A DNA stretch of 64,000 bases from Candidatus Eiseniibacteriota bacterium (GCA_963833505.1 CAWHYG010000007.1:1641-65640), one strand, 5' to 3'; shown: positions 637 through 28,268, numbered from the stretch's first letter. The notes: generated from the letters alone by a model not told the origin. Numbers and translations: made by a program.

Positions 637-1599
637 CTACACTAAACCCGAGGGGGAAAGTGTCTCACTGGATGTTGGCAAAAACTCCCATCCTACCGCC
701 GGGTCCTCACAAGCTCTCCGCAGCTCGCGAGTCATGTCGGCGGAGATCGTGAACTCGACCTTCTCGCGCCATAGGTACTTCAGCACCTTCTCGTCGTAAC
801 AGGCGCTGTCCCCGCGAAAACACCGGCGCTCCACACTCCGGGGCAGAGCCGAAAGCGCACGCGCGGCGATCTCTCGATTCCCCATCCCCGCGGGAACGTT
901 GCCGTCCCGATACTCGTCCGCTACGACCAGGTCGGCCTCCGCCCAAACCACCACCACCGGCTGAAAGCCTCGGCCACCTTCGTAGTGGGACAAGGCTTCC
1001 CGCCGACGACTCTCCACTATCGTCGCGTCCAGATCCAGCGTGGCCAACCGCGGACAATCCATCATCACTCCGCGATGCACGAGCCCGACGTTCCATCGGT
1101 GCAGGCCCACCAGCGGGACGCTCTCTGGTACGATCCATGCCCCTCCCGCCGGCCGCTTCGACAACACCTCCTCGTCGTGAAAGCTCATCAGAAAATCCAA
1201 AAGCGCGTCCGGTGAGGGTGCCCGCCGACCCAGCAGCCGACTCAGGCCCTGATCCCGAGCCAGGACCCGAATGTCCTCGACCCGCTCTCCCCCCGCCGCC
1301 AACATCAAGACAATCCACTGGAGCTTCTCGTAAACCGTGAAACCCCGCCGCCGGGAACCCAACGGCAACTCCCGCGCCGCCAACTCGTCCATGCCCAAGG
1401 CCAGCAGAAGTTCCGCCACCAAGGGCAGGCCCGCCTGAGACGTCATGTCCATCGGCCGAGACGCAGCCTCCATCCGGAACGGCAGCAACCCCTGTCGGTG
1501 CCGTGACCCCATCGCCAACCACCCCTCGGCTCCTTCCGAACGCACCCAGGGGATCGATCCCCCCAAAGTCTCGCAAATCGTCTCCCATCTTTCACCCAA
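637..1599 (-). pseudogene. IS1380-family (DDE_Tnp_1_4-like) transposase, C-terminally truncated copy
   Basis: This 320-aa ORF is identical over its first ~306 aa to the 500-aa ORF at 1785..3287, then diverges into 13 unrelated residues and stops. DNA at 693-1660 is near-identical to 2381-3345. Confidence 0.75.
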
Positions 1600-1660
1600 T
1601 GGGTGAGATCATCCTCAGGCCAGACACCAAACTACGGAGTTAGAGCGGAGTTGGGGAGCG
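693..1660 (-). mobile_element. Truncated IS1380-like element copy 1 (lacks the transposase C-terminal end)
   Basis: Direct near-identical repeat of 2381-3345. It ends at the same terminal sequence ...ctacggagttagagcggagttggggagcg as copy 2. Confidence 0.65.
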
Positions 1661-1678
1661 TCCCCAACTCCGCTCTAA
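1640..1678. repeat. Perfect 18-bp inverted repeat with 3-bp spacer: IS1380-like terminal IR abutted to an inverted solo IR
   Basis: ttagagcggagttgggga (1640-1657) + gcg + tccccaactccgctctaa (1661-1678). The left arm is the terminus of IS copy 1. The same terminus in copy 2 (3325-3345) is followed by unrelated sequence. Confidence 0.8.
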
Positions 1679-1749
1679 GGGGCCTTCGGCGGGCTTCCCG
1701 CCCGCTTTCCCCGCTGTAAGTCCTTGGCAATCCTCATCGCCTCCCTCAC

Positions 1750-3345
1750 CGGTTCCGCATTGGGGAGGGCCGGAAATCTCCGCTCTAAGAGAAGGGCAGT
1801 TCCGGAGACTCATCCGGGCTCGATCTCCAGCTGTCGGCCAATCCCAGCAGCTTGGCTCGCGCCGCGACCAACTCGTCTACCGTCAGGGGAGGCGCCGCCA
1901 GACGAGCGGTCAGCTCCCGGGCATGCTGCCGGATCATCGCGGCCATCGAGAAGAGCTCGTACCGCAGCCGCTTCGGTCTGGCTTCCCGGAGACGCTCGGG
2001 CAGAGCGTGTCGCTTGAGCAGACTGAGAACGTTGTACGTGATCAGGTTCAGACGAAACCAGGCGGCGTTGGCTCCGAATCGCTGACTGGGAACAATGCCC
2101 CCTCCCAGCTCGTTCTTGATCACGCCGTGCGTGTGCTCGATCGTGCCCGCCTTCTGCCAATGCCACCGAAGCAACTCGGTTGTCGACAGGTCTTCCCGAT
2201 TACTCACCACGGCCAAATGCTTCAACTCTTGCCCGCCGGAAAACAACGCCCCTTGCTTGGCCGTGAACCGCACCGCCACGTAACGCATCGGAGGTGCATC
2301 CTTCGGCCAGTCGCCCGGAATAAACTCCACCTCCGCCGCCTCCACGTACTCGCGAGGTCGGTCTTCCAGAAACTCCCATCCTACCGCCGGGTCCTCACAA
2401 GCTCTCCGCAGCTCGCGAGTCATGTCGGCGGAGATCGTGAACTCGACCTTCTCGCGCCATAGGTACTTCAGCACCTTCTCGTCGTAACAGGCGCTGTCCC
2501 CGCGAAAACACCGGCGCTCCACACTCCGGGGCAGAGCCGAAAGCGCACGCGCGGCGATCTCTCGATTCCCCATCCCCGCGGGAACGTTGCCGTCCCGATA
2601 CTCGTCCGCTACGACCAGGTCGGCCTCCGCCCAAACCACCACCACCGGCTGAAAGCCTCGGCCACCTTCGTAGTGGGACAAGGCTTCCCGCCGACGACTC
2701 TCCACTATCGTCGCGTCCAGATCCAGCGTGGCCAACCGCGGACAATCCATCATCACTCCGCGATGCACGAGCCCGACGTTCCATCGGTGCAGGCCCACCA
2801 GCGGGACGCTCTCTGGTACGATCCATGCCCCTCCCGCCGGCCGCTTCGACAACACCTCCTCGTCGTGAAAGCTCATCAGAAAATCCAAAAGCGCGTCCGG
2901 TGAGGGTGCCCGCCGACCCAGCAGCCGACTCAGGCCCTGATCCCGAGCCAGGACCCGAATGTCCTCGACCCGCTCTCCCCCCGCCGCCAACATCAAGACA
3001 ATCCACTGGAGCTTCTCGTAAACCGTGAAACCCCGCCGCCGGGAACCCAACGGCAACTCCCGCGCCGCCAACTCGTCCATGCCCAAGGCCAGCAGAAGTT
3101 CCGCCACCAAGGGCAGGCCCGCCTGAGACGTCATGTCCATCGGCCGAGACGCAGCCTCCATCCGGAACGGCAGCAACCCCTGTCGGTGCCGTGACCCCAT
3201 CGCCAACCACCCCTCGGCTCCTTCCGAACGCACCCAGGGGATCGATCCCCCCAAAGTCTCGCAAATCGTCTCCCATCTTTCACCCAATGGGTGAGATCAT
3301 CCTCAGGCCAGACACCAAACTACGGAGTTAGAGCGGAGTTGGGGA
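1750..3345 (-). mobile_element. IS1380-family insertion sequence, full-length copy 2 (boundaries approximate)
   Basis: Contains the 500-aa transposase. Terminal core cttagagcggag at 3324-3335 is inverted relative to ctccgctctaag at 1778-1789. The low-coordinate boundary is uncertain. Confidence 0.65.
1785..3287 (-). CDS. IS1380-family DDE transposase (500 aa)
   Basis: Motif ...HTHGVIKNELGGGIVPSQRFGANAAWFRLNLITYNVLSLLK is characteristic of DDE_Tnp_1_4 / IS1380-family transposases. The protein is full length. Confidence 0.8.
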   Translation of the reverse strand: MGERWETICETLGGSIPWVRSEGAEGWLAMGSRHRQGLLPFRMEAASRPMDMTSQAGLPLVAELLLALGMDELAARELPLGSRRRGFTVYEKLQWIVLMLAAGGERVEDIRVLARDQGLSRLLGRRAPSPDALLDFLMSFHDEEVLSKRPAGGAWIVPESVPLVGLHRWNVGLVHRGVMMDCPRLATLDLDATIVESRRREALSHYEGGRGFQPVVVVWAEADLVVADEYRDGNVPAGMGNREIAARALSALPRSVERRCFRGDSACYDEKVLKYLWREKVEFTISADMTRELRRACEDPAVGWEFLEDRPREYVEAAEVEFIPGDWPKDAPPMRYVAVRFTAKQGALFSGGQELKHLAVVSNREDLSTTELLRWHWQKAGTIEHTHGVIKNELGGGIVPSQRFGANAAWFRLNLITYNVLSLLKRHALPERLREARPKRLRYELFSMAAMIRQHARELTARLAAPPLTVDELVAARAKLLGLADSWRSSPDESPELPFS

Positions 3346-4269: not shown

Positions 4270-5197
4270 TTAGCGGCTCGCCGTCTGGGCGCCGCCGCCG
4301 CCGAAGGGCGGAGTCAGTCCCGTGAAATCTCCGATGATCTTGGCGTCATAGGGGCCGTACAGGCCCTTCTGGGTTGAGTAGCGATCATAGCCGACGTTGT
4401 TCCCGATCGGCCCGCCTCCGGCCAGTGGCAGCCCGTAGCTCGCCACGATCGTGCCCCCCTGGTTGACGCGGATGACCCGGTTGTTGAACTGATCGCTGAT
4501 CAGGGTGTCTCCGTTGTACAGACGCACGGCCCGGGTCGGCGCAGGTGCCGGAACGCTCAAAGGATCGGTGTTGGTCACATACTGCCAGACCACGATGTCG
4601 TTCTCGTCGACTTCGACCGCCCGCGAGTTCCCGGCGTCGGTGAGCAGGGTGTGGCCGTTCGGCAGGCGGCTGGCGAAGGCGCACGCTCCGAGGGTCCCGC
4701 CCGCCGTGTACACCTTGACGACCTGGTCGTCGTGGTTGACCTCAAGGGCCCGGTTGTTGTTCTCATCCGCGATCAGGACGTCGCCGTTCGCCAGAAGCTC
4801 CGCCGAGTTCGGACTGTTGAGCGAATCGGAGGGGTTGGTGTTCAGGCCGGGATAACTCCAGACGATCTGCTTGTCCGGGGTGACCTCGATGATTCGCTGA
4901 TTTCCCTGGTCGGTGATGAGAACGTCGTCGTCTGGCAGCCAGGTACACTGCACCGGCGTGTTGAGAGAATCAGGTCCCGAGCCCGTCTGACCGAACACGC
5001 CGTATTGCCATACGATGTGGCCGCCGTGATCGACCAGGATGACCCGGTTGTCGACTGCCCCGTTCGGAGCCTGGGGAATCACGCCCGGAGGATCCCCCGT
5101 GCCCGCCATGAGAGTGAGCCCGCCGACGCGCTCGGCATCGTTGACGCCGATGACCGACTGCTCACTGAAGTCGTTCGGCCCGAGCCCGCGGGATCCG
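4270..5197 (-). pseudogene. NHL-repeat beta-propeller lipoprotein, C-terminal portion (gene split by IS256 insertion)
   Basis: Repeated ...IADxxNNR(A/V)IEV... NHL units. The reading frame continues upstream of the annotated Met to the IS boundary (…GSRGLGPNDFSEQSVIGVNDAERVGG…). Confidence 0.75.
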
Positions 5198-6642
5198 TCC
5201 CGCCTTCCGTGGAAAAGAGGAGATGGCGTAACCTCCAGTTAGCCAATAACCAAAGGCTCGGACGAGCCAGGGAGGTTACGCCATGGGGGAGTCTACCACC
5301 GGACTGCGGGTCCTGCCCAGTCCCGAGGACATTCGTCGGTTGCTGAGGGTCAAGATCGTGGCCGCGGTTCAGGAGATCCTGGAGGAGGAGATCGCTCTGC
5401 TCCTGGGCTCGCAGCGGTATGAACGGACGGAGACCCGCAACGGGTATCGGAACGGTCGTGAACGGCGCCGGGTGACGACGGAGAACGGGCCAATGGAGCT
5501 GCAGGTTCCTCGAGCTCGGGTTCAGCAGCCCGACGGATCGACGGCCGAGTTCCGGAGCAGCGTGCTGCCGCGCTACCAGCGGCGCACGAAGCGGGTCGAC
5601 GACGCCATCCTCGGGGCCTACCTGGCCGGGGCGAACACCCGCCGGATCAAGAAAGCTCTGGAGCCGCTGCTGGGGGAATCGAACCTCTCCCGGAGCGCGA
5701 TCTCGCGGGTGGTACAGCGGATCCGGACCTCTTTCGAGACCTGGTCGGCTCGGGATCTGTCGGAAGACCGCTTCAAGGTTCTCTACTTGGACGGGATCCA
5801 CCTGAAGGTGCGGCTGGTTCGTCGGGTGGTCTCGGCGCCGGTCCTGATCGCGCTGGGGGTTCGGGAAGACGGCACCAAGGAGCTGGTCTCGCTCCGGCTG
5901 GCAGCGGCAGAGAGCGGCGCCACCTGGGAGGGGCTGATCGACGACCTGTCGAAGCGCGGCCTGGAGGCGCCGGTGGTGATGGTGAGCGACGGCCACGCCG
6001 GGTTGAAGCGGGCCACCGCCCGTTGGCCGGAGTCGAAGGTGCAGCGCTGCACCTGGCACAAGCTGCAGAACCTCCTGCAGCACTGTCCGCGCCACGCCCG
6101 CCCCGAGCTCAAGCGGGACTACCAGGCGATCGTCGGCTCCAAGGACGGCCTGGCGGCGCGCGAGGCCCGGGGGAAGTTCCTGCGGAAGTGGGGTTCGCTC
6201 TGCGCCGAGGTGGCCCGGAGCCTGGAAGAGGCGGGAGAACAGCTCCTCACCTTCTTCGAGTTTCCCAAGGCGATGTGGAAGTCGCTGCGGACGACGAACC
6301 CGATCGAGAATCTGAACCGGGAATTCCGCCGGCGAACCAAGACCCAGGGCTCGTTCTCCACCGAGGACTCGGCCCTGACCCTGCTCTGGGGCTTGGTGGC
6401 CTTCGGCCAGATCCGGATGCGGAAGATCGACGGGCACCGGAAGGTCTCGACCCTGCAGACCACGGCGAAAGCGAAGGCGGCCTGAATCCAGCGGAAGTTG
6501 ATGGTGGAAACGAATCACGAAACCCTCATGAACGAGGCGAACCGGTCGGAGGACCCGGGCTCCAGAAGGGAAAGTCGCCCTTCCGTGAGGACGATTGAGG
6601 TATCATCCAGTCACCCGGAGGTTACACATCCACTTTTCCACA
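5198..6642 (+). mobile_element. IS256-family insertion sequence (~1.45 kb) with ~27-bp imperfect terminal IRs
   Basis: Left end ...gtggaaaagaggagatggcgtaacctcc is inverted relative to right end ggaggttacacatccacttttccac. Flanked by direct repeat GGATCCG (5191-5197 and 6643-6649). Removing the IS plus one repeat copy rejoins the NHL ORF in frame (…GIRPGS|RGLGPN…). Confidence 0.8.
5283..6485 (+). CDS. IS256-family (Mutator-like) transposase, 400 aa
   Basis: Conserved C-terminal signature ...TTNPIENLNREFRRRTKTQGSF... and the DDE region. An internal hairpin ggcgtaacctcc/ggaggttacgcc (5225-5236 and 5271-5282) overlaps the RBS and start codon. Confidence 0.9.
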   Translation: MGESTTGLRVLPSPEDIRRLLRVKIVAAVQEILEEEIALLLGSQRYERTETRNGYRNGRERRRVTTENGPMELQVPRARVQQPDGSTAEFRSSVLPRYQRRTKRVDDAILGAYLAGANTRRIKKALEPLLGESNLSRSAISRVVQRIRTSFETWSARDLSEDRFKVLYLDGIHLKVRLVRRVVSAPVLIALGVREDGTKELVSLRLAAAESGATWEGLIDDLSKRGLEAPVVMVSDGHAGLKRATARWPESKVQRCTWHKLQNLLQHCPRHARPELKRDYQAIVGSKDGLAAREARGKFLRKWGSLCAEVARSLEEAGEQLLTFFEFPKAMWKSLRTTNPIENLNREFRRRTKTQGSFSTEDSALTLLWGLVAFGQIRMRKIDGHRKVSTLQTTAKAKAA

Positions 6643-6894
6643 GGATCCGGGACGGATCCCGAGCCCGTAGGACCACACAATGTCCCCGGTCGCGGTGGCC
6701 TCGATGACCCGGTTGTTGAACTGGTCAGCGATCAGGATGTCGCCCAGGCGGGTGGCGTAGCCTCCCTGCCCGGCTGACTGATCCAGGGGACCGACGGCGG
6801 AACCCGAAGGCGCCGGAGTCTGCCCCTCCCGCGAGCATCCGGCCGCCAGGATCACAACCGCTGCCAGCACGAGAATTTTCTTGCGACGAATCAT
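6643..6894 (-). pseudogene. NHL-repeat lipoprotein, N-terminal portion (lipoprotein signal peptide + first NHL repeat)
   Basis: MIRRKKILVLAAVVILAAGCSREG... is a lipobox-type signal, followed by ...ILIADQFNNRVIEA... The ORF runs into the IS256 right end, where it terminates. Confidence 0.7.
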
Positions 6895-9203: not shown

Positions 9204-10733
9204 TCACGGCCGTGAGCGATCAGTGACGTGATTGCGGGGCGCGGCCGAAACCGCTTGTGCCGCCAGTTCGGCGCGCCTTTCCCGACAGGCCGCAGCCTTG
9301 TCCGGTCTACCCGTTGACTTGTACAAGGCGATCATCCAGTCGAGAATCTTGAGCTTGGTCTTCGGCGATTCATCCTTGTCCTCCAGGACCACCAGGGAAT
9401 ACCGCACCAGCAGGGATTCCCCTTCGGCAAAGCGCCTCTCCGCCGACCAACAGGCTCCCAGGGCGCAGGCCGCCTCGGCGGCGTCCAGCGGACTCGAGGG
9501 GACGGCCTTCAGCAGTTCCCGGTCTTCCCGAAGGACCGTATCGGCCTCGCGCAGGTCTCCTTTCTCAGTCAGGAGCATGCCCAGATGCAGCAGCGGATCG
9601 GAGGCCCGGGGATGGCCCATCGGCTGGTTCTTTCGATAGATGCCGATCGCCTCCCGGTAAAGAGCGATGGCTTCGTCGTATCTTCCTTCCGATTCCAACT
9701 CGTGGGCCAGGAAGTCATCGCCGACGGCGACGCTGGGATGATCCGGGCCGTGCGCCTTTCTCTCGATGGCGATCGCCTGGCGGCACATAGACTCCGCTTC
9801 CGCGGTTTCACCCATGTCGGTCAGCAACTGGGTGAAGTTGATCCTGGTGTCTGCAATGTGGGGATCATCGCCGTCGCGGGTTGCGACCTGGGTCGCCAGA
9901 ACATCCCGAAACAGTCTTGCCGCCTGCTCGTTGTCGCCCTTTCGCTCCACGATCATGGCCAGGTTCCCCAGGGGACCGGCGACCCGCGAGCTGTCCGCGC
10001 CCAGGACACGCCGCATCATGGCCACGGACTGGCGGGTGTTGCTTTCGGCGGCCTCGTATTTTCCCTGCAGGTACTGCGCCCAGCCGAGACTCATCAGACA
10101 GCTGGCGACGTAGATGTGCTCGTCGCCGAAGATCCGCCGGCGCATCTCCAACGCGGCGGTTTCGACGGATTCCGCCTTGGCGTATCGGCCGGTCAGGACC
10201 AGGATGCCGGCCTGGGTGTCCATGCTGTTGGCGATGTCCGGATGGTCCCGCCCAAGCAGTCTGCGCCTCAGGGCCAGGGTCGAGTCCTCCAGGCGCCCCG
10301 CCTCCGGCAAGAGCCCCAGGTTCTTCCGGACGCTCGCGAGCAGATTCATGCTGCTGGCCACGTCCACGGTCTCCGGGCCGAGCCGCCGGCGACGGATGCC
10401 GAGGGACAAGGAGACCAGGGAGTCCGCCTCCCGGTAGCGGCCCTGGAAATTCGAGTTGTCGCCCAGGTGGTAGAGGCTGGCGGCGACATCGGCCTGGTCG
10501 GCGCCGAGGCTTTGCTGCCGGATCTTCAGGGCCTCTCGCAGCAGGTGGTCGGCCTTGGCGTAGAAACCGAGGTTCTCGTAAACCTGTCCCATGGTGTCCA
10601 TCAGCTTGGCCCGAACCTCCGGTTGGTCCGCCAGCTCCCGCTCCGCCATCTCGGCGCCGTCATCCAGGATTTCGCGCGCGGTGATTCCGGTGACCAGACG
10701 GCTGTTGGTCGGGTCGGAGATCTCGGGGTTCAT
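9204..10733 (-). CDS. Tetratricopeptide-repeat protein (kinase-less), last gene of the lanthipeptide operon
   Basis: 509 aa of tandem TPR_12-like repeats (…ASSLNNLA…YEEA… pattern). Starts 34 nt after the ECF sigma gene stop, same strand. No kinase or anti-sigma domain is recognisable. Confidence 0.8.
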   Translation of the reverse strand: MNPEISDPTNSRLVTGITAREILDDGAEMAERELADQPEVRAKLMDTMGQVYENLGFYAKADHLLREALKIRQQSLGADQADVAASLYHLGDNSNFQGRYREADSLVSLSLGIRRRRLGPETVDVASSMNLLASVRKNLGLLPEAGRLEDSTLALRRRLLGRDHPDIANSMDTQAGILVLTGRYAKAESVETAALEMRRRIFGDEHIYVASCLMSLGWAQYLQGKYEAAESNTRQSVAMMRRVLGADSSRVAGPLGNLAMIVERKGDNEQAARLFRDVLATQVATRDGDDPHIADTRINFTQLLTDMGETAEAESMCRQAIAIERKAHGPDHPSVAVGDDFLAHELESEGRYDEAIALYREAIGIYRKNQPMGHPRASDPLLHLGMLLTEKGDLREADTVLREDRELLKAVPSSPLDAAEAACALGACWSAERRFAEGESLLVRYSLVVLEDKDESPKTKLKILDWMIALYKSTGRPDKAAACRERRAELAAQAVSAAPRNHVTDRSRP

Positions 10734-10767
10734 TCCTCGGGATCAGCCGGGAGGCCGGACAACGAGC

Positions 10768-11427
10768 TCAAGGCCCCTCCGAATTCGCGCCGGTGGATCC
10801 GGAATGCGTGCCTTCGGAAAGCTCGGCAAACAGCCAGGCCCGGGCAGCACGGGTCTCATTGACCACGGTCGCGGTTGACAGGTTCAGGACGCCGGCCACT
10901 TCCTCGACGCCCAGTCCGCCGAAGAAACGCAGTTCCACGATGCTCGCCTTGCGTGGATCCAGACCCGCCAGTCTGCTCAGGGCCTCGTCCAACTCCAGCA
11001 GATTGTCCGGAGGCTCAAACCCGACCTCCAGGGCCTCGTCCAAGGAGACCTTGCGCAGGCCCCCGCCCCGTTTGGCGTACCGGTGACTCCGGGCGTGATC
11101 GACCAGGATGTGGCGCATGACCTGTGCCGACACGGCAAAGAAGTGGGCCCGGTTTTCCCAACGGGGATCGGTATCGCCCACCATTCTCAGGTAGGCCTCG
11201 TGCACGACCGCGGTTGCCTGGAGCGTGTGGCCAGCGCGCTCCCGCCGCATGTATCGGCCGGCGAGGCGGCGCAGCTCGTCATAGACCAGGGGGAGCAGAT
11301 TCTCCAGAGCCACGGCGTTCCCCTGGCGCCACTGCGAGAGCATCCGGGTCACATCCGTGGGCGGTTCTGTCAATCTCCCTCCCCATCCAGCGCTCACGGA
11401 ACTATAATGCATCCTGAATTGGCGCAT
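10768..11427 (-). CDS. ECF-type RNA polymerase sigma factor (TIGR02999-like subfamily)
   Basis: N-terminus ...DVTRMLSQWRQGNAVALENLLPLVYDELRRLAGRYMRRERAGHTLQATAVVHEAYLRMV... and a C-terminal region-4 HTH (…SIVELRFFGGLGVEEVAGVLNLSTATV…). The true start may be the Met at 11412. It lies 49 nt downstream of the lanT stop on the same strand. Confidence 0.8.
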   Translation of the reverse strand: MRQFRMHYSSVSAGWGGRLTEPPTDVTRMLSQWRQGNAVALENLLPLVYDELRRLAGRYMRRERAGHTLQATAVVHEAYLRMVGDTDPRWENRAHFFAVSAQVMRHILVDHARSHRYAKRGGGLRKVSLDEALEVGFEPPDNLLELDEALSRLAGLDPRKASIVELRFFGGLGVEEVAGVLNLSTATVVNETRAARAWLFAELSEGTHSGSTGANSEGP

Positions 11428-11476
11428 GTCGAGTATTTATGGGGGGCGCTCGCTCGCCCGGGCCTCCGATGGCAGC

Positions 11477-13192
11477 TCAGACAGCCCAGGCCCGTCCGAC
11501 GCCGGCCCGGAGCGGGACCTCCGAGTCGGGCTGCGCGAGGCGCTGGTCTCGTTGCTCCCGCACGAGCGACGCGTAGAAGCCCCGGCGGGCGAGCAACTCC
11601 TCGTGCCGGCCGCGCTCGACGATCCGCCCACCCTCGAAGACCAGGATGAGGTCTGCATCGCGGATGGTGCTCAGCCGGTGAGCGACGACGATCCGGGCGT
11701 AACCGATCCGGCTCAGTCCTCGCTCGACGGCTCGCTCGGAGGTCGCGACGAGGTGACTCGTGGCCTCGTCGAGGATCAGCAGGGCCCGGGGCCGCGCGAG
11801 CGCCCGGGCCAGGCAGAGACGCTGCCGCTGCCCGCCTGACAGCCCCGCCCCGCCTTCGGCGACGCGGGTGTCGTAGGCCAGGGGCATGGCCGTGATTTCC
11901 TCGTGAATGGCCGCCAGGCGCGCGGCCCGCTCGATGTCGGCGGGAGACACCTCCGTCTCGTGAAAGGCGATGTTCTCCCGGATGGTGCCGTCGAAGAGAA
12001 AGGTCTCCTGCGGGACGACGCCGAGTTGCCGGCGCAGGGTGCCGAGATCGAGGTCCTCCAGGGGAACGCCGTCGAACGAGATCCTGCCTTCCGTGGGACG
12101 TTCGAGTCCGAGCAGAAGGCGCGCGAGGGTGCTCTTGCCCGACCCGGAGCGGCCGACGAGGGCGATCTTCCGGCCGGGCTCGAGGTCGAATGAGATGTCC
12201 TTGAGGACCATGGGGGAGGCCGGCCCGTAGCGGAAGCCCACCTGCCGGAAGGCCACCCGGCCGGTCAGCTTCATCCGCCGCCGCAGCGCGCTCGCCGCCT
12301 GCTCGGGATCGGACTCGAGCACGTCGGCGAGGCGGGTGAGTTGCGCTCCCAGGAGCTGGAGCCGTTGCGCATTCGCGGCCAGGGCCGCGCCGGGGGCGAG
12401 GGCGGTCACACCGATTCCGGTCATGGCGAAGAGGCTCCCCATGGTCATCCGGCCGGCCGCCACCTGGGCGGCTCCGCACCAGAGAAGCAGCAAGGGTGCG
12501 GAACTCTGCAGTGCGGTGGTCGCGGCGGTGACCCGCGCGGAGACGTCTCCCCTCCGAAGAGCGATGTCCAGATTGCCGCGAAAGGCGCCGGTCCAGCGCG
12601 CGAGCGCGGTCTCCTCGTTCCCCGACGATTTGACGGTCATGATTCCGTGGAGCATTTCCACGAGACGGCTGTCCACCCGGCCCTGGCTGGCGAGGTCGCG
12701 GTGGGTCAGGTTTCGCAGGGTCCCGTTGGATCGCAGCACGACGGCGGCGTTCCCGACCGAGAGCGCTGCCACGATCAGGGCCAGCTTCGGGGCGGCGAAG
12801 ATCAGGATCCCCAGATAGGCGAAGAAGCAGAGCGCGTCGAGGGCCATCTCCAGCATGCCGGCGGAAAGCGTCTCGCGGATGGTCATGTTGCTCGCCACCC
12901 GATGGATGAGGTCTCCGCTCGTGCGTTGCCGAAAGAACCGGTAGGGGAGGCTGAGGAGATGGGCCAGGAATGCCGGCATCATCTCGGCGTCGAGCCGGCC
13001 GCGAAGATGAAGGAGGAGCACCGAGCGGACATAGCCCGCGACCGCCTGCGCCCCCACCAGCAGCAGGCTCCCGGCGGCGACGGTGGTGACCAGGGCCATC
13101 GTGCGGCCGGGGAGGAGCCGGTCCACCAGCAGCTTGGTGAAAAAGGGAACCGCGAGCCCCAGCGCCTGAAGAGCGAGAGATGCGCCGAACAC
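11477..13192 (-). CDS. lanT: Lanthipeptide exporter LanT, ABC transmembrane + ATPase portion (frame continues upstream to ~13300; separated from its C39 domain by a frameshift)
   Basis: TMD region (…[17 protein letters not shown]…) and NBD ([31 protein letters not shown], Walker B/D-loop) follow. The listed start is GTG. The same frame is open upstream (…[26 protein letters not shown]…), which reads as a natural C39-TMD linker. Confidence 0.8.
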
Positions 13193-13289
13193 CTGATAGA
13201 GGAGCGCCCGGCGGGAGAGGATCTGGCGCCCGAGTTGGTCCCGCGCATTCCCCTCCGGCTCCTTCCATTCGATCCCGGTTCGCGAGGCG

Positions 13290-13763
13290 TCACGACGGAA
13301 ACAGAATGGCCACGCCGGTGAAGGCCTCCTCGAACTCAGCCCAGGGGACCGACCGGCGCCCGTCGGCGGGATCGACGAGGTCCACGCGACGCCGGTGGCA
13401 GCGCTCGACCACCACGAAGTGATCGTGCTTCCAGTGGACGATCGCTGGCATCGACAGTTGAGCCAACGCCAATGGCGGCACCTCGTAGGCCGCGCCGCGC
13501 AAACCGAACTCCTCTCCGGCCCGCAGGAGCGTGAGGGCTCGGACTCCGTCCCGATCGGCCCCGCAGGATTCCGCGCAGCGCGCCACGCTGGAGCGAATCC
13601 CGTGGTGCCGGAGCACCATGGCCAGGCACGCGGGTCCGCACTCGTTCATCGTCATCTGGTGCAGGACCGGCACCCTCCGCCGCGACCGCCGCCAACGCGC
13701 CATGGCCGCGCGGGCCGCATAGGTCAACCGTGCCACCGACTCGACCAGGTGAAGAAGGTTCAT
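13290..13763 (-). CDS. lanT: LanT N-terminal C39 bacteriocin-processing peptidase domain (double-glycine leader peptidase)
   Basis: ...[28 protein letters not shown]... is the catalytic Cys motif of C39 peptidases. A good SD (GAGGAG) sits 7 nt before the Met at 13763. It ends in a different frame from the ABC portion, 97 nt upstream of it. Confidence 0.8.
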
Positions 13764-13958
13764 AGCAATCTCCTCAGAATGCGCGGGCGAGCAGAACCAG
13801 GCCCGCCACTGCGAACAGGATGGCGAGGATGACGGGACGGACGCGGGAGGGGAGCGCGATGTCCGGGGGCGCGGAGACCGGGAGTGCGGTATCCGGCGGC
13901 GCGATCCCGGACAGGCGGCCGGCGTTCCCGCTCGCACGCGGCGCCGTTCTCCTTGCGA

Positions 13959-16900
13959 TCATGGCCGGCCTTCCGACGAAGCCACGGATCCCTGGATCGG
14001 CGGATCGAAGGCCAGCACCGACGGCACACGGCAGGGAGCGGCCAGGCGCAGAAGGCCGTATCCGATTCCCGCGATCCCCTCCATGAAGCCCGGCGTCTCC
14101 GCGCCGAGCGGGACGCCGCAGACCCAACCCTCGGTCCGGATGTCCGCGACCACCCGCATCGCGCGAGCCCGAAGCTCTTTGCCGGCCGCGGCGGAGTGTC
14201 CGTGGCGGGCGGCCTCGGTCAGACACTCCATGACTCCGAACTGCCCGTGCGCGAGCGAGAGGTCACCCGGAGTTGCGGCGCGCGCGATGGCCATCGCCGC
14301 GTCGAACTGCGCGCTGGTATCGCCGCTCCTCCCTTCTTGGAAGGCACGGAGCAGGGCGAGACCGGTACCGGCGGCGCCCCGATCCCACGAGGGATCGTCC
14401 GGCAGGATGTTGTCGCCTTTCAGGGCCTCGAGCGCCAATCGACGCAATCGCTGGTCGCCGCTCATGCGCCCAAGGCGGACGAGGGCCAGAGCGATCCCCG
14501 CGGGTCCGTACGCCAGCCCCGTCGTCGGCTCGTTCCCGCGCCGCTGCCGCGGCCAGAGGGCGATCCCGCAGTCGCGTTCGGCGAAACGGAGCAGGTGCTG
14601 GCCGCAGACCCGCGCGGCCTCCACGGTCTCGCGGGAAGGCGCCACCTGATGGAGCGCAAGCACGCCGGACAGCAGGCCCGCGGTCCCGTCACAAAGGGAG
14701 AAAAGACGATCGGCCCGGATTCGCGGCGTGTTCGCGGCGACCAGGTCGTGCGCCTCGCGCAGCAGTCCCTCCTCGCCGGTGAGCGCGCCCAGGTGAGCCA
14801 GGGTGTAGATGACGCCTCCCCAGCCTTCGAGGGCGCCGAGCGGAACCGCATCCAGCATCCGGGGGGAGAGATGGTACGTTCCGATGCGCAGGGTGCGCAC
14901 TGCCAGGCGGGCGAGAGCCGAGTCATCGCCGTCGCCGGTGACGTCGGCCAGGAGGGCGAGGAAGAGCGCGATTCCGGCAAGGCCGTCCGAGAGCTGATTG
15001 CCGAGGATCTCCATCGACCAGGCTCCGTGCCGGTGGATGGGACCCGCCCAGCAGATCCCGTCCTCATTGCGGTAAGCGATGTCGGCCAGGCGCCGCGCCG
15101 CCGCCCTCGCACCGGCCAGCAGGGCCGCGGAGTCGAACCTGTCGGCGGACGGTGGCGAAGCGCGTCGCGCTATCGGCAGGGCCGGGGTGGCGTTCATGCG
15201 CAGCGTGGCCAGCGCGGTTTCGATCGCGTACCGGTGCCGCTCGAGGTGGCGCTCGTCGATCTGCTTCGCCTGCAGCAGCACCGTCTCCAGGCTCGGTCGG
15301 TCGAAGATCCCCGGCAGGCGTTCGCCCCCGCTGGTCCAGACGTCGCGGGACGAGGGCCGACCGTGAAAGATCGGAATGTCGCCCGCGATCAAGTCCGAGC
15401 GCTCGAACGGGATCAACGGACAGAGAATCCGGCGCTGCTCCACCTCCAGATCGATCCAGAGGTGGTCGAGCATGCGCTCCCGCTCGAGGGCGTCGCAAAG
15501 GAAGTCGGGGTGGTAGCTGTCCTCGAGCACGATGCCGTAGGTGCGCGTGTCCCGGCTCAGGATCCGGATCTCGTCCTGCGCGAACGCCGTCACCGGCCCG
15601 CCGGCGGCGAAGAACTCGACCTTGAGTCGCGCCAGCAGGGAGAAGGCCTCGGAAAAGCCGGCCACAATCTCTCCGGTGAACTCCTCCACGTTCATCTCCA
15701 CCCCGCCGATCCGCGGCCGATTGTGGCCGCCGGAGGAGGTGGCCACGCTCCGGCGGTCGTAACGGCAATCGTCACGGCCGGCGGCCCGAAGCTCGAGGTT
15801 GAAGTCCGGCGATTCGTCGCCGTCGCGCGCGCCCAGGCCGCTGATGTCGACACCGACGTGGGCGTCGTTGGACCAGACCCGCCGGGGCAGAAGGCCGCTG
15901 CGGAACACCGAAACGAAGTCGTCGCCGTCAGCAAGTCTCTTCCCCTCCATGTCGCGAAGGGCATAGAGCCGCGATTGGAAGAGGCATTCCAGGTCGATGA
16001 AAACCGGCTGGTCGCCCGCGGCGATGAGGTTCTCGGCGTGCATGTCTCCCGCATCGAGGGCGCAGAGCACCGCCATCAATCCACCCACCCGATGGTAGAA
16101 GCGGCCGGCCTCCTGCTGATTCACACAGTCGGCGCGGGTGACGAACTCGGCCCAGCCGTACCCGCCGCGGTCGAGGATCCGTATGGTGCGGAAATCCATC
16201 GGCCCGCGCCGGTTGATCCACTCCAGGACCTCCTGGAAGTGGCAGTCCACCGAAAGCGAGCGCGGCTTGTACACCAGCTTGAGGCCGGAGGAGAACTCCA
16301 GGATCGAGACCGTCCGGCCCCGGCGATGGCTGTCGCCCTGCCCGCTGTCGATCGCGGTCAGGCGCTCCACGGCCTCACCGGACGAGAATTGCTCCACCAG
16401 GAGGCGAAAGTCTTCCGCCAGATGGGAAAGGATCTCGAGATGAAAGTCCATCCACCCGCTGAGCCCGTCCGCGAGCTGCTGAGCCAGGACCGGATATTCG
16501 CGCAGGAGCGCGAGCGCGGTCGCGGGGTGCTGCAGCCGGGCACGGAAGGCCTCGAAACGGTCCTCCGGCGTTTCTCCCGCCAGTTCCCCGCGGAGTCGCG
16601 ATACGTTGAGTTCCAGAACGAGCGTGCGGCCGAGCATCGTCCACAGCCGCCCGACGGGCAGGGTACCGAGCAGGATTTCACGGAGGTTACCGGCCTCAAA
16701 GGGGAGGGGCCCGTGCTGCCGTTCCAGGGCTGAAATCAATCGCGGGAGCGGCTCCAGCAACCGCTCCACGATCGGCCTGATGAGCGACCAGAGCGCCGTG
16801 CCGGCCAGTCCGGGCGGGGCGTCGCCCGAGCCCGCGCTCGGCATTTCGAAGCACCTGCTGATCAACTCGAGCCAGGCCGGCGCGACCTCCGTCCGCTCGC

Positions 16901-17147
16901 GCACCGCCTCGATCGGCTCCCCCAGAATCTGGAGGAAGTCACCGGCGTTCAGACCTTCGAAGGCCAGCCGCTGATCGAAGAGCCGGCCCGGCAGCGGTGA
17001 CTGCGGCGCCCGCCACCAGGCCAGGCGTCTCTCCGCCAGGTCCGGGTCGAAACCTCGCCGGCTGTCGCTCCTGCGAAGAGTCTGCACGCGTTCCTGAAGC
17101 GGCAGGGCCTGGTACCACGAAGCCTGGGAAAGGACGGCGGATTTCAT
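13959..17147 (-). CDS. lanM: Class II lanthipeptide synthetase LanM (N-terminal dehydratase/DUF4135 + C-terminal LanC-like cyclase), 1062 aa
   Basis: Kinase-like dehydratase motif ...DAGDMHAENLIAAGDQPVFIDLE...; LanC-like motifs ...GLAGIALFL..., ...SLAHGQFG..., ...EGWVCGVPLG.... The start at 17147 has [10 protein letters not shown] 7 nt upstream. The long ORF listed from 17600 is upstream read-through across lanA. Confidence 0.9.
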   Translation of the reverse strand: MKSAVLSQASWYQALPLQERVQTLRRSDSRRGFDPDLAERRLAWWRAPQSPLPGRLFDQRLAFEGLNAGDFLQILGEPIEAVRERTEVAPAWLELISRCFEMPSAGSGDAPPGLAGTALWSLIRPIVERLLEPLPRLISALERQHGPLPFEAGNLREILLGTLPVGRLWTMLGRTLVLELNVSRLRGELAGETPEDRFEAFRARLQHPATALALLREYPVLAQQLADGLSGWMDFHLEILSHLAEDFRLLVEQFSSGEAVERLTAIDSGQGDSHRRGRTVSILEFSSGLKLVYKPRSLSVDCHFQEVLEWINRRGPMDFRTIRILDRGGYGWAEFVTRADCVNQQEAGRFYHRVGGLMAVLCALDAGDMHAENLIAAGDQPVFIDLECLFQSRLYALRDMEGKRLADGDDFVSVFRSGLLPRRVWSNDAHVGVDISGLGARDGDESPDFNLELRAAGRDDCRYDRRSVATSSGGHNRPRIGGVEMNVEEFTGEIVAGFSEAFSLLARLKVEFFAAGGPVTAFAQDEIRILSRDTRTYGIVLEDSYHPDFLCDALERERMLDHLWIDLEVEQRRILCPLIPFERSDLIAGDIPIFHGRPSSRDVWTSGGERLPGIFDRPSLETVLLQAKQIDERHLERHRYAIETALATLRMNATPALPIARRASPPSADRFDSAALLAGARAAARRLADIAYRNEDGICWAGPIHRHGAWSMEILGNQLSDGLAGIALFLALLADVTGDGDDSALARLAVRTLRIGTYHLSPRMLDAVPLGALEGWGGVIYTLAHLGALTGEEGLLREAHDLVAANTPRIRADRLFSLCDGTAGLLSGVLALHQVAPSRETVEAARVCGQHLLRFAERDCGIALWPRQRRGNEPTTGLAYGPAGIALALVRLGRMSGDQRLRRLALEALKGDNILPDDPSWDRGAAGTGLALLRAFQEGRSGDTSAQFDAAMAIARAATPGDLSLAHGQFGVMECLTEAARHGHSAAAGKELRARAMRVVADIRTEGWVCGVPLGAETPGFMEGIAGIGYGLLRLAAPCRVPSVLAFDPPIQGSVASSEGRP

Positions 17148-17220
17148 CGAATGCCTCCCTTGGCGGTTTCCGGAATCTCGATCGGGGCGGAAGAGGGACA
17201 AGTCTGCTTGGGCAAGGAAG

Positions 17221-17259
17221 AGGCCCGCGAAACCATGAACTCCGAAGCCTCGCGGGCCT
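17221..17259 (-). promoter_or_regulatory. Intergenic stem-loop between lanA and lanM (candidate partial terminator/attenuator or mRNA-stabilising hairpin)
   Basis: Perfect 10-bp GC-rich stem aggcccgcga / tcgcgggcct around a 19-nt loop, in the 131-nt lanA-lanM spacer. Confidence 0.5.
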
Positions 17260-17278
17260 GAACCGATGTCCATCGCGA

Positions 17279-17527
17279 TTAGAAGAGCGTGGAACCCGAG
17301 TCTCCCGATCCGCGCGTCGAGACGTACTTGCAGCAGTCGAAATTGCGGCTCCCGAACCAGGTGTGAGGCCGGTAGAGTTCCATGCCGCCCACGATGGGCG
17401 AGAGCTGCTCGTCGGTGAGGCGGGTTCCGCCGGCCGGGTTCTCCGGCAGTTCGGCTCGTTCGGATTCGCTGAGCTGCGCGCGGAAGTGGGCGTCCTTCCA
17501 GGCCTGGATGACTTTGTTCGGCGACAT
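17279..17527 (-). CDS. lanA: Lanthipeptide precursor LanA with mersacidin/lichenicidin-type leader (82 aa)
   Basis: MSPNKVIQAWKDAHFRAQLSESERAELPENPAGGTRLTDEQLSPIVGG|MELYRPHTWFGSRNFDCCKYVSTRGSGDSGSTLF. Compare the mersacidin leader MSQEAIIRSWKDPFSRENSTQNPAGNPFSELKEAQMDKLVGA|GDMEAA. Shared features are WKD..(F/Y)R, NPAG and a VGG/VGA double-glycine-type site. Strong SD AAGGGAG. Located immediately upstream of lanM. Confidence 0.8.
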   Translation of the reverse strand: MSPNKVIQAWKDAHFRAQLSESERAELPENPAGGTRLTDEQLSPIVGGMELYRPHTWFGSRNFDCCKYVSTRGSGDSGSTLF

Positions 17528-17976
17528 TTTCGGTCTCCCTTCGTCTGGACACGGGGCTGCCGTATCCGAGTTCCTGATTCCGGGTCGTTCCCGGCTTCAA
17601 CCTGTAAGGCGGGAAACGGCGGGGCGGGAGATAACGCCATTGGAAGAATGTTCGAGTTCAGGCTGGCCGGGGCCAACCACTTCATCAATTGCACCTTCAC
17701 GGGGAATGTCTCCTACGAGGGAGGAGCCCTCTTCATCTGCGGCACAGGCCCTGGCGGGCCGCAATTTCGCAGTTGCACCTTTGTCCGCAACCGTGGCGCA
17801 GGGCAGCCGGGCGACGGCTGGAGATCACCCCTTCGGCGGGTCGGAGTCGAACATGCGTCTGAGCCTGTCGGTCGATCGTGAGCCGCGGGTGCAGGGCAGG
17901 TTCTCCAGGGCGAGGCTGGCCCGGGACAGGCAGGCCCTTGTGGCCCCAGGGCGCACATCGGCCCTAAGATGAGTGC

Positions 17977-25808: not shown

Positions 25809-28268
25809 ATGATGAATGACGCCGGCGCCGCGCCGCTCGTGCCCATCGAACCCAACCCGTTCATCGTCGGCAACCCGGTGCGCGACCCGGCCATGTTCTT
25901 CGGGCGCGAGGCCGAGTTCGAACTGATCCGCGGCCGCTTCCAGCAATCCGAGCACGGCGGACTGATCGTGCTCTGCGGCGAGCGGCGCAGCGGCAAGACC
26001 TCGATTCTCTTTCAGGCGGTCTCCGGCCGGCTCGGCCCGGACTTCATTCCGGTGCTCATCGACATGCAGTCGATGGTGATCGCCAATGAAACCGGTTTCC
26101 TGCAGAGGGTGATGGAGGAGATCCTGCTTGCGCTCGGTTCCCGCCGGGCGCAACTCCCTCTTCCGGCTCTCTCCACATCCGTCATGCCCGCGAAAGCCCT
26201 CTATGACTTCGTCGGCGCACTGACCGCGAGCTTCCCTGCATGCAAACTCATCCTCCTCTTTGACGAATACGAGCTCTTTGAAAGCAAGATCGACGCGGGC
26301 ATCCTCACCGAGGACGTCCTCAACGTGCTCGCTGGAATCATGGAGCGATACGGCGTCTTCCTCATCTTCACCGGGTCGCAGGACATTGAGGAACGACGGC
26401 GCCGTTATTGGAGGATCCTACCCAAATCGATCTATCGCAGGATCAGCTATCTGCAACGGACCGACGCCGTCAACCTGATTCAGCAGCCTGTGGCGGGGAG
26501 GGTGGCTTACGATCCGGACGCCATCGAAGCCATCTGCCGGCTGACGGCCGGACAGCCCTTCTACACCCAGTTGATCTGTCAGAATCTGATCGACCATCTG
26601 AACGAGAGGCGAACCAACCGGGCCACTCGGTCTGTCGTCTCCGCCGTGGTCGAGGCGGTGGTGGAAAATCCGCCCCCCCAGATGATCTCGTTGTTTGACA
26701 GCCTCCCGGCGGACGAGAAGCTCGCGCTCGCTCACCTGGCCGAGCGTCTGTCCGGGCCCGACGATCAGCAACCCGCGGTGGCCCTGGCGCGACAGGCCCG
26801 CGGTTCGAAGTACTCCACCAACCTGACTTCGCAGCGGATCGGATCGGCGCTCGAGAGCCTCTTTGGCCGGGAGCTTCTGGACAAGGGGCCGGGGCCGGAT
26901 CCCGGCTACGCCTTCCGCATGGATCTCTGGCGGCTCTGGATCGCCCGGCGCCACTCGGTCTGGCAGGTCGTGCGCGAGATCTCCTCGGGCCGGGACCCGA
27001 ACCTGCGCTCCCCGCATCTGTCCAAGCTCGGAAGAATCGCGGCGGTTCTTCTTGGGGGCGCCGCCCTCCTGGTTCTCGGGTTGCTCAGCTTCCAAAACCG
27101 GCGGGGCATCGCGCCGGCGTTCTCCTCGAGGTCAATGTCTGCGAAGCAGTCTTCCTCAGATACGGGACGGACGGCGCACGTCGCGGCGACCAGGACGCCT
27201 CTGGTCTATGGCCATTGGGTGCGATGGGCTCAAGCCGATTCGGCTTACCCTGCCCGTAGCGGGCAGGGGGTCGTCTACGACCCAGGCGGCCACCGGATGA
27301 TTGCGTTCGGTGGCGGTTTTCAGCGGCGGAAATGGAACGACGATGTGTGGCAGCTCGCGTTGTCCCAACACGGGGTTTGGACGAGGGTTCATCCGCTGGG
27401 AACTCCGCCGACCGCCACCGAGTGCATCTGGCCGGTACAGGATTCCGCCCGGAATCGATTGCTGACCTTTGGCGGGGCGGATCGTTCCGGCGTCCGTCAC
27501 AACGAGACGTGGGCCCTTCTGCTCGACGGACCTCCTCGCTGGGAGCTGCTGAGCCCGGCTGGGCCCTATCCACCCCCGCGCGCGAGCCACGTGGCGGTGC
27601 TCGACCCGCGGCGGTATCGTATGATCGTCTTCGGCGGGTTCGATTGGGCCGCGGACAAGGATGTTATGAACGACGTCTGGTCCTTGTCGTTGGCTGGCGG
27701 TCCCCGGTGGATCCAACTCTCGCCCGCCGGCGATCCGCCCTGGCCGCGCTCCGACTTCGCCGGTGATTACGATCCGGTTCGCGATCAGATCATCTACTTC
27801 GGAGGCAACTACCGGCCGGATGGTTCCTTTCACTTGCAATACACCAACGAGGTCTGGGCGCTTTCCCTTCATGAACCCATCACCTGGACTCAGCTCCATC
27901 CTTCTGGACCGCCGCCGACCCCGCGCAAGGGTCACAACTTCGTCTTTGACGCCGGCAATGACCGGATGATCCTGTTCGGCGGCCAGGACTCGACCGGCTT
28001 CTGTAATGACGTCTGGCAGCTCACCCTCTCCGGAAGTCCGGCCTGGCGACAGCTTGATCCGCACGGGCCGCTTCCCGCCCCTCGTCAGAACGCGGGGATG
28101 ATCTACGATCCGCCGGACAAGGTGATGGTTCTCTCCGGGGGAGAGCTGGATGCCCAACGATTCCATGAAACCTGGGCGTTGACCCTGACCCCGGACCAAC
28201 CTGCGCCTGCCTCTGGCCAGGCGGACACGAGTCGAGCGGACTCCCGAGCGGAGAGAAGACGGCCATGA
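25809..28268 (+). CDS. AAA/STAND-like NTPase - transmembrane - Kelch-repeat beta-propeller protein
   Basis: N-terminus ...FFGREAEFELI...IVLCGERRSGKTSIL (Walker A). Mid-protein TM segment (…IAAVLLGGAALLVLGLL…). C-terminal repeated ...RMI(A/V)FGG...DVW(Q/S)L... Kelch-like blades. Confidence 0.75.
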   Translation: MMNDAGAAPLVPIEPNPFIVGNPVRDPAMFFGREAEFELIRGRFQQSEHGGLIVLCGERRSGKTSILFQAVSGRLGPDFIPVLIDMQSMVIANETGFLQRVMEEILLALGSRRAQLPLPALSTSVMPAKALYDFVGALTASFPACKLILLFDEYELFESKIDAGILTEDVLNVLAGIMERYGVFLIFTGSQDIEERRRRYWRILPKSIYRRISYLQRTDAVNLIQQPVAGRVAYDPDAIEAICRLTAGQPFYTQLICQNLIDHLNERRTNRATRSVVSAVVEAVVENPPPQMISLFDSLPADEKLALAHLAERLSGPDDQQPAVALARQARGSKYSTNLTSQRIGSALESLFGRELLDKGPGPDPGYAFRMDLWRLWIARRHSVWQVVREISSGRDPNLRSPHLSKLGRIAAVLLGGAALLVLGLLSFQNRRGIAPAFSSRSMSAKQSSSDTGRTAHVAATRTPLVYGHWVRWAQADSAYPARSGQGVVYDPGGHRMIAFGGGFQRRKWNDDVWQLALSQHGVWTRVHPLGTPPTATECIWPVQDSARNRLLTFGGADRSGVRHNETWALLLDGPPRWELLSPAGPYPPPRASHVAVLDPRRYRMIVFGGFDWAADKDVMNDVWSLSLAGGPRWIQLSPAGDPPWPRSDFAGDYDPVRDQIIYFGGNYRPDGSFHLQYTNEVWALSLHEPITWTQLHPSGPPPTPRKGHNFVFDAGNDRMILFGGQDSTGFCNDVWQLTLSGSPAWRQLDPHGPLPAPRQNAGMIYDPPDKVMVLSGGELDAQRFHETWALTLTPDQPAPASGQADTSRADSRAERRRP

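Follow-up and report, generated by a model that had tools for sequence, protein, structure and literature searches.

A class II lanthipeptide-type operon in a Candidatus Eiseniibacteriota bacterium, with a predicted intact LanM dehydratase and a cyclase half lacking the canonical zinc site

A stretch of 64,000 nucleotides (nt) from Candidatus Eiseniibacteriota bacterium (GCA_963833505.1, CAWHYG010000007.1:1641-65640; hereafter the window, within which all positions are counted) carries, between 9204 and 17527, the open reading frames (ORFs) of a LanA precursor peptide, a LanM synthetase-type protein, a C39/ABC exporter (LanT), an extracytoplasmic function (ECF) sigma factor and a tetratricopeptide repeat (TPR) protein, all of them co-directional on the minus strand (Table 1). 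A preliminary description of this DNA, made from the sequence, had read the five genes as one compact class II lanthipeptide operon. The profile matches bear out its lanA, lanM and C39-ABC exporter genes, with DUF4135, LANC_like, Peptidase_C39 and ABC_membrane all found, and its spacers of 131 nt (lanA-lanM) and 34 nt (sigma-TPR) were likewise recovered, next to others of 195 nt (lanM-lanT) and 49 nt (lanT-sigma). The gene content is genuine and well past chance. As judged from sequence, the functional unit is formed by lanA, lanM, an overlooked membrane ORF of 62 amino acids (aa) and lanT, and represents a class II lanthipeptide-type operon for a peptide that is made by the ribosome and modified after translation (RiPP). 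The class II assignment holds for the type of LanA, LanM and exporter; it is not established in the strict sense of a zinc-dependent cyclase, as two zinc cysteines and the acid/base histidine of LanM are replaced.

The match of LanM to TIGR03897 lies above the cutoff of 304 bits (718 bits), as against 53 bits for the class III model. Among structures in the PDB, LanM matched LicM2 (6st5, E 1e-92) and CylM (5dzt, E 1e-45), and an AlphaFold2 model built on 120 relatives (predicted local distance difference test, pLDDT, 90.7) returned the same two proteins as best folds, with target-side template modeling scores (TMt) of 0.78 for LicM2 and 0.73 for CylM. Within this model, the LanC-like domain reached pLDDT values of about 80-98, mostly above 80. 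Outside its own lineage, identity to LanM does not exceed 42-44%; the named relatives are mostly Cyanobacteria and Acidobacteriota (Pyrinomonadaceae), and no relative was found when the genome-contig collection was searched with LanM. In the dehydratase half, residues D272, H274, K294, D368, H370, N373 and D385 correspond to CylM D252, H254, K274, D347, H349, N352 and D364, and R528 and T534, just past the Pfam span, correspond to CylM R506 and T512. These catalytic columns are invariant or nearly so in 120 LanMs, and the codons of the window LanM were checked. The D.H.EN motif named in the preliminary description was found as DMHAEN at residues 368-373. Mutagenesis of CylM demonstrated that the catalytic residues are required for phosphorylation and phosphate elimination (PMC4550811). 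On this alignment, the ATP-dependent dehydratase active site of LanM is complete.

A different picture was obtained for the LanC-like domain, in which motif positions were taken from HMMER alignments to LicM2 and CylM, the zinc ligands of CylM being C875, C911 and H912 (PMC4550811). At the WC motif, PSWDRGAAGT of the window aligns with YWCHGAPGI of LicM2 and NSWCKGTVGE of CylM, and the zinc cysteine equivalent to CylM C875 is replaced by Asp922. At the CHG motif, SLAHGQFGVME stands opposite SLCHGLIGNLN of LicM2 and CLCHGNAGTLE of CylM, with Ala966 in place of C911. His967 (CylM H912) is retained, and two of the three zinc ligands are thus lost. In addition, TTGLAYGPAGIA of the window aligns with LTGFSHGLTGIA of LicM2 and places Tyr880 (in GLAYG) in the column of the active-site acid/base histidine of LanC enzymes, equivalent to NisC H212. 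Further replacements in this half comprise Ser817 for a family Asp and Arg923 for His. The preliminary description had listed SLAHG and WCG as LanC-like motifs, both of which prove to be misassigned: SLAHG is the CHG position with its cysteine replaced by alanine, and WCG (GWVCG, residue 1010) marks another conserved site, at which there is no ligand. Careful alignment therefore leaves a protein without two of the three ligands and the acid/base histidine, and with its dehydratase motifs intact.

Such replacements are rare in the family. Among the 119 best LanM relatives, 116 carry His/Cys/Cys/His at the four columns, where the window LanM reads Tyr/Asp/Ala/His. At the DNA level, eight metagenomic relatives (L004-L011) all encode WC(H/R)G, and seven of them were seen to encode CHG as well, L009 being the one in which it was not detected. 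LanC-type zinc ligands have been described as strictly conserved outside class III (PMC10604976). Two more of the 119 relatives lack the zinc cysteines, namely P0087 (Arg/Ala/Gly/His) and P0091 (His/Ser/Ser/His). Both are 57-58% identical to canonical LanMs, 40-42% identical to the window LanM and 50% identical to each other; since they are closer to canonical LanMs, the zinc cysteines have been lost at least three times. The P0087 gene (JGI sample 3300047160) lies 3.6 kb from genes for an ECF sigma factor and a 1283-aa protein kinase-TPR (Pkinase-TPR) protein, and is followed by the gene of a 585-aa protein without a family match, in place of a C39-ABC exporter.

The altered residues are shared with a second member of the lineage. 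On a JGI metagenome contig of 2761 bp (L003) lies a LanM gene with no stops; over residues 227-1062 its product shows 84% identity and keeps Ser817, Asp922, Arg923, Ala966 and His967, position 880 being Cys. Between the two sequences, the ratio of non-synonymous to synonymous substitutions (dN/dS, Nei-Gojobori) was 0.24 in the dehydratase half (95% bootstrap interval 0.16-0.34) and 0.46 in the cyclase half (0.33-0.62), the latter clearly below 1. This ratio, together with the same residues in L003, argues that the domain is still selected for something. The comparison indicates that the zinc-less state is inherited and maintained rather than a one-off error, and that the cyclase half is selected for a role other than the canonical chemistry.

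The precursor combines a common leader with a rare core. The leader comprises residues 1-48 and ends at the double-glycine site IVGG, at which the match to TIGR03898, the mersacidin/lichenicidin leader model (residues 5-48, cutoff 23.5 bits), stops exactly. An exhaustive HMMER search over 1.84 billion representatives found this leader to be common to 1102 proteins (representatives at 50% identity), and a word-index search with LanA returned one homologue only. The leader also weakly resembles nitrile-hydratase-type (NHLP) leaders, which fits an NHLP-type exporter. The core after IVGG, MELYRPHTWFGSRNFDCCKYVSTRGSGDSGSTLF, has 34 aa with eight Ser/Thr and two adjacent Cys. Only two core relatives occurred among the matches examined, both unnamed metagenomic peptides: P0001, 90% identical to LanA, with the core MDVNRPHTWFGSRRFDCCKYLSTRGAGDSGSTLF, and P0242, 54% identical, with the core VAGFAPGTHIRSRSFTCCKYISGRVISHTFLV; the contigs of both stop short of the cyclase half of LanM. 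Across these three lineages the pattern PxTxxxSRxFxCCKYxSxR is kept, with Thr8, Ser12, Cys17-Cys18 and Ser22 conserved, and the retention of the cysteines together with these hydroxyl residues argues that the Cys pair still matters. No PDB chain matched the core, and the mersacidin-like lipid II-binding motif, of the CTxTxEC type, is absent from it by direct reading. We know of no named lantibiotic that it matches. These results agree with the preliminary description, in which the core was held to be unlike any recognized lanthipeptide, and on sequence grounds the core belongs to a tiny, undescribed, Cys-containing family. Adjacent Cys-Cys pairs were also seen in LanA cores beside canonical LanMs in L005, L006 and L008 (for instance MCCNCSDCTK and WWCCGG), so the vicinal pair is no special mark of the zinc-less lineage.

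Directly after the lanA stop codon, a GC-rich hairpin is predicted, followed by UCUUCCUU. Both relatives, L012 and L099, carry the hairpin as well, and in L099, the most distant of the three sequences in all, two of its pairs are compensatory. The folding energy of the whole lanA-lanM spacer was no better than that of shuffled sequences (z 0.37), and conservation is limited to the local hairpin, which is probably an attenuator or transcript-stabilizing stem of the type usual after lanA genes. The lanA-lanM relatives stay 86-87% identical in DNA through the spacers. Upstream, GGAAC-N16-CGTGTC was noted at 17545-17580 on the minus strand, about 30 nt before the lanA ATG, with CGCGTC in L012. As an ECF-type promoter this candidate was rejected, the motif being absent in L099 and too loose for significance.

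Table 1. Features at the lan locus and in the adjoining sigma factor/TPR gene pair, with positions in the window.
Feature	Position	Strand	Evidence
lanA precursor, 82 aa	17279-17527	-	TIGR03898, 63.3 bits
GC-rich hairpin 3' of the lanA stop	17221-17259	-	Fold prediction, stem of 13-14 bp
lanM, 1062 aa, class II synthetase-type	13959-17147	-	TIGR03897, 718 bits
DUF4135 dehydratase (kinase/lyase) domain, LanM residues 218-595	15363-16496	-	PF13575, E 8e-113
LanC-like domain, LanM residues 714-1045	14013-15008	-	PF05147 (LANC_like), E 9.5e-34
Small membrane ORF, 62 aa	13774-13962	-	Called as a gene in a Logan assembly
lanT, C39 peptidase-ABC exporter (PCAT)	11477-13763	-	Peptidase_C39, ABC_membrane and ABC_tran domains
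Sigma-70-like promoter match, TCGACA-17-CATTAT	11404-11432	-	Consensus match only
ECF sigma factor, TIGR02999 (Sig-70_X6) type	10768-11427	-	TIGR02999, 220 bits
TPR protein, 509 aa	9204-10733	-	TPR_12, E 1e-53; TPR_10

The exporter gene is interrupted in the window. Its C39 part (13290-13763) and the ORF of its ABC part (11477-13192) lie in different frames, and the ABC frame can be read upstream of 13192 to about 13290. What separates them is a single additional T at 13303, which is missing from L002, a Logan assembly (run ERR11594402) that is 99.95% identical over 5.5 kb and carries lanT as one ORF. Two other single-base differences between the window and L002 occur at 16421, which is synonymous and leaves the LanM protein unchanged, and at 13443. 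The additional T may be either an error of assembly or a genuine variant. The repaired LanT of 761 aa matches the peptidase/permease/ATPase profile TIGR03796 in one stretch (positions 1-710) with 596 bits, below the equivalog cutoff of 853. The preliminary description was therefore right about the C39 and ABC domains and missed the frameshift that divides them.

Its gene list also has no entry for the lanM-lanT gap, which in fact measures 195 nt and holds the conserved 62-aa ORF. The ATG of this ORF overlaps the lanM stop codon (ATGA), and its end lies 10 nt before the lanT ATG. The encoded peptide has a basic, Pro-rich N-terminus and a hydrophobic helix at its C-terminus, and no match was found in Pfam or NCBIfam. 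The L003 product is shorter, at 47 aa, through an indel of 45 nt that keeps the frame, and most changes in the helix are either conservative or synonymous. Our guess is that it represents a candidate accessory or immunity peptide. The reading frames of lanA, lanM and this ORF are uninterrupted in the window as well as in three further assemblies.

The ECF sigma factor, whose score clears the TIGR02999 cutoff of 126 bits, is probably a protein of 191 aa starting at position 11343 (M29), as in the public gene call (P0122). Relatives with 67-84% identity sit beside Pkinase-TPR genes, and the named sigma relatives are Acidobacteriota. One of them (P0124, 76%) lies between a gene for a pterin-binding enzyme of folate metabolism and a convergent TPR/Pkinase pair. 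Another (P0127, 67%) lies downstream of rpoB and rpoC, at about 4.8 kb with two opposite-strand genes in between, and its next gene encodes a 759-aa Pkinase-TPR protein (L095). Neither has lan genes nearby. In a further relative (L098, 84%), the DNA similarity to the window ends just upstream of the sigma gene, and no lanT-like DNA was seen. Such sigma/kinase modules are very numerous, as all 8000 candidates scored passed E <= 1e-10. Aligned with residues 392-719 of the L095 protein, the TPR protein shows 39% identity and corresponds to the C-terminal sensor part of the sigma-linked Ser/Thr kinase-TPR type, with neither kinase nor membrane parts; the Pfam scan found no Pkinase domain in it. 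Furthermore, the only sigma-70-like promoter match between 8500 and 18200 lies in the lanT-sigma spacer, upstream of the 11343 start, with 0.4 expected from shuffled sequences. From these comparisons, the sigma factor and TPR genes are most likely a neighbouring, partly degenerate and kinase-less copy of the common sigma/Ser-Thr-kinase-TPR module with its own promoter. A second TPR_12/TPR_10 protein is encoded at 62023-63912 on the minus strand (629 aa, N-terminal ~300 residues without a Pfam match) and could likewise belong to the TPR proteins associated with sigma factors.

Beyond these genes, searches across the 64-kb window found no second LanA, second LanM or stand-alone LanC, and LanD, LanFEG, LanJ and YcaO domains were not encountered among the Pfam-scanned window ORFs, consistent with the earlier statement that LanFEG, LanD and a second LanA or LanM are missing. 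Rfam and tRNA scans of the window gave no matches. On the side of the lan cluster away from the TPR gene, housekeeping genes are found together with a YgiQ-type radical SAM gene in divergent orientation. A YgiQ search returned 80 loci, the best at 74% identity in metagenome-assembled genomes (MAGs) of Spirochaetota, with no synteny; the 21 other window proteins had no matches beside these YgiQ loci, save weak (31%) ABC matches in L043. The preliminary description had also proposed a Gemmatimonadota-like host bearing FlgD C-terminal domains. FlgD_ig C-termini do occur on two large secreted-type proteins on the plus strand, a 1076-aa FG-GAP repeat protein (52102-55332) and a 943-aa Sortilin/BNR-like protein (55440-58271); a Gemmatimonadota-like lineage is left without support for this uncultured, high-GC host.

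GC content reaches 0.675-0.70 in the lan genes, compared with about 0.64-0.65 in the flanks. No repeats bracketing the lan cluster were found; the only repeats are copies of insertion sequences (IS) and an NHL-repeat gene. IS elements occur 3-8 kb beyond the TPR gene. One of these, with a Mutator/IS256-type transposase gene at 5283-6485, is flanked by 33-nt inverted repeats (5189-5221 and 6629-6661) and appears to be inserted in the NHL-repeat gene, whose 42-43-nt units are found on both sides (4445-5054 and 6677-6744). The minus strand at 637-3287 encodes two DDE_Tnp_1_4 transposases of 320 and 500 aa, whose ORFs have one 300-nt segment in common without any difference (679-978 and 2367-2666); this is an IS in nested or duplicated form. 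Transposase genes of the ISL3 family (452 and 414 aa) form an adjacent pair at 42047-44646 on the minus strand. Further genes of note, all on the plus strand, encode an AAA/STAND-Kelch protein (819 aa) followed by a Ser/Thr kinase-nSTAND2 NTPase fusion (647 aa) at 25809-30286, an 821-aa fusion of CheB methylesterase, CheR methyltransferase and PAS at 39482-41947, and a 902-aa protein with an amino-acid (aspartate) kinase, an ACT domain and an Orn/DAP/Arg decarboxylase at 58457-61165, which looks like a LysC-LysA-type fusion.

Comparison with known systems helps to place the unusual LanM. The lichenicidin (LicM2) and cytolysin (CylM) systems share with the window a LanA with a TIGR03898-type leader and GG site, a LanM joining DUF4135 and LanC-like domains, and a C39-ABC exporter; fold and all dehydratase catalytic residues are also shared, whereas Asp and Ala for the zinc cysteines and Tyr for the acid/base histidine set the window apart. 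From mersacidin-like peptides the core differs in the missing lipid II motif of the CTxTxEC type. The best functional analogy for a scaffold role is CcaM, one of the LanMbC enzymes of the dehydrazoles (carnazolamide), in which a DUF4135 dehydratase is likewise fused to a zinc-free LanC-like domain (PMC10676384). CcaM differs in that its C-terminal domain is of the class III type, it co-occurs with YcaO, its cores contain azoles and it works independently of a leader, whereas the window LanM is of class II by score (718 versus 53 bits), has no YcaO in the scanned ORFs and is accompanied by a normal leader. Class III LanKC enzymes such as ThurKC form thioethers without zinc on a LanC-fold domain, evidence that this fold can support metal-free cyclization (PMC10604976). 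However, ThurKC has Ser/Phe/Asp where the window has Asp/Ala/His, carries separate lyase and Ser/Thr kinase domains, and reaches a TM score of only about 0.3 over the whole protein. Missing zinc ligands have been reported, from sequence alone, for a predicted LanM of Pseudanabaena galeata (PMC11356792) and for clostridial LanM-like proteins of the CA_C0082 type (PMC10301443). Cys is missing from the precursor of P. galeata, unlike the core family of the window, which conserves Cys-Cys; the CA_C0082-type proteins are shorter, also lack dehydratase residues and function in Agr signalling, whereas in the window the dehydratase is intact and precursor and exporter genes are adjacent. Finally, the ECF sigma (TIGR02999)/Ser-Thr kinase-TPR modules resemble the sigma and TPR genes at the levels of identity given above, and differ in that the window pair has no kinase or membrane segment and stands directly after lanT.

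Taken together, these features suggest the following pathway. LanM would phosphorylate Ser and Thr residues of the core and then eliminate the phosphate, converting several of the eight to dehydroalanine or dehydrobutyrine. Its zinc-less C-terminal domain may persist mainly as a substrate-binding scaffold needed for dehydration, by analogy with CcaM, which forms no rings and yet depends on its zinc-independent cyclase domain to dehydrate (PMC10676384). The C39 domain should cut after IVGG, and the exporter would release the 34-aa core. Cys17-Cys18 might then react with Thr8, Ser12 or Ser22 without zinc, and ring closure could be spontaneous, substrate-controlled or assisted by the domain as in class III enzymes, whose cyclase domains work metal-free (PMC10604976). 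The product is most likely a dehydrated, GG-cleaved and exported peptide in which any thioether rings form without zinc, and between rings and a linear dehydropeptide the odds are roughly even. To the explanation as a whole, namely a lan unit with a dehydrated, exported product, a zinc-less cyclase half and a separate sigma/TPR module, we assign a probability of about 0.65. A more specific proposal, in which the zinc-less class II LanM lineage still directs thioether formation or other Cys chemistry on the Cys-Cys-Lys-Tyr core, is tentative and on present evidence rather doubtful. If it were true, metal-independent cyclization would have arisen inside class II independently of class III, and the losses in P0087 and P0091 among the 119 relatives would point to a recurrent evolutionary route.

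Several observations weigh against the explanation we favour. The two halves of LanM differ twofold in dN/dS, the cyclase half having the higher value (bootstrap P 0.99), which also fits slow decay, and the lineage is represented by two LanM sequences only, which differ at position 880 (Tyr versus Cys). On few sites, the dN/dS of LanA was about 1.0 in the core, as against 0.20 in the leader, and lanT has a frameshift in the window. The cysteines C699 and C975 are specific to the lineage, being retained in L003 at positions that hold Ser/Thr and Leu in relatives, and together with D922 and H967 they might in principle restore a metal site. In addition, no terminator was found in the lanT-sigma spacer (49-133 nt), and read-through from lanT, with co-transcription of the sigma and TPR genes, is possible.

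These points bear on three other explanations. That the cluster is a canonical class II system, with a LanM that dehydrates the core and forms (methyl)lanthionine rings via a zinc-activated thiolate, would accord with the full-length LanM, its LANC_like domain and LicM2/CylM fold, the presence of Cys and Ser/Thr in the core, the retained His967 and the extra Cys699 and Cys975. It nevertheless appears very unlikely, because Asp and Ala occupy the zinc cysteine positions and Tyr that of the acid/base histidine in columns that 116 of 119 relatives keep, and because the LanC motifs on which the canonical assignment had leaned stand at the wrong positions. Moreover, mutants of LctM in the zinc ligands keep dehydration and cyclize poorly, as far as the work of Paul et al. 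(2007) is cited in PMC10301443 and PMC11356792. Decay offers another account, according to which the cluster came in by horizontal transfer next to insertion sequences, its function is being lost along with the cyclase site and the exporter frame, and no mature product is made. The frameshift at 13303, the raised dN/dS of the cyclase half, the alteration of 29% of its nearly invariant family columns (versus 18% in the dehydratase), the transposases 3-8 kb away, the GC content of the lan genes above that of the flanks and the TPR gene without its kinase part are all in line with a relic. We still judge it unlikely, since four assemblies, the window included, have uninterrupted frames for lanA, lanM and the 62-aa ORF, lanT is intact in the 99.95%-identical one, the cyclase-half dN/dS is significantly below 1 with the same replacement residues at 84% identity, the dehydratase catalytic residues are all intact, and leader, core motif and lanA hairpin are conserved.

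The remaining question concerns the extent of the operon. In the preliminary description the sigma factor and TPR genes after the exporter, which are indeed present, were counted into one five-gene operon, and they could then be dedicated regulators or sensors of the peptide, like MibX/MibW of microbisporicin, a class I lantibiotic controlled by cluster-situated ECF sigma factors (PMC5742136). Co-direction, the 49-nt and 34-nt spacers, the lack of a terminator-like site between lanT and sigma, the sigma and kinase-TPR pair 3.6 kb from the zinc-less P0087 LanM and the loose GGAAC-N16-CGTGTC motif before lanA can be cited for such a unit. Its nearest sigma relatives, however, stand beside kinase-TPR genes in non-lan contexts, with no lanT-like DNA upstream in L098, a promoter-like site precedes the sigma gene, the TPR protein aligns with the TPR part of a kinase, the pre-lanA motif is not conserved in L099, and sigma/kinase modules are so numerous that adjacency can be chance. 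A single five-gene operon is accordingly quite improbable, and a four-gene lan unit beside a separate sigma/TPR module is preferred.

Class II lanthipeptide clusters are found by the thousand, and a new core alone is routine. What is unusual here, on the sequence evidence, is a true LanM with secondary loss of the zinc site, beside a precursor with a conserved Cys pair. Zinc-less LanM-like proteins are already known in silico (PMC11356792, PMC10301443), as is one characterized zinc-free DUF4135 fusion, CcaM. Annotation tools of the antiSMASH type would call the product a lanthipeptide either way, and the case of SLAHG, which looked right and was wrong, illustrates that the spotting of LanC motifs must be positional. 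If rings still form, metal-free cyclization can evolve within class II. If no rings are made, the enzyme would be a natural LanM that acts as a leader-dependent dehydratase with its cyclase fold kept as a scaffold, which would be of use to both enzyme engineering and annotation.

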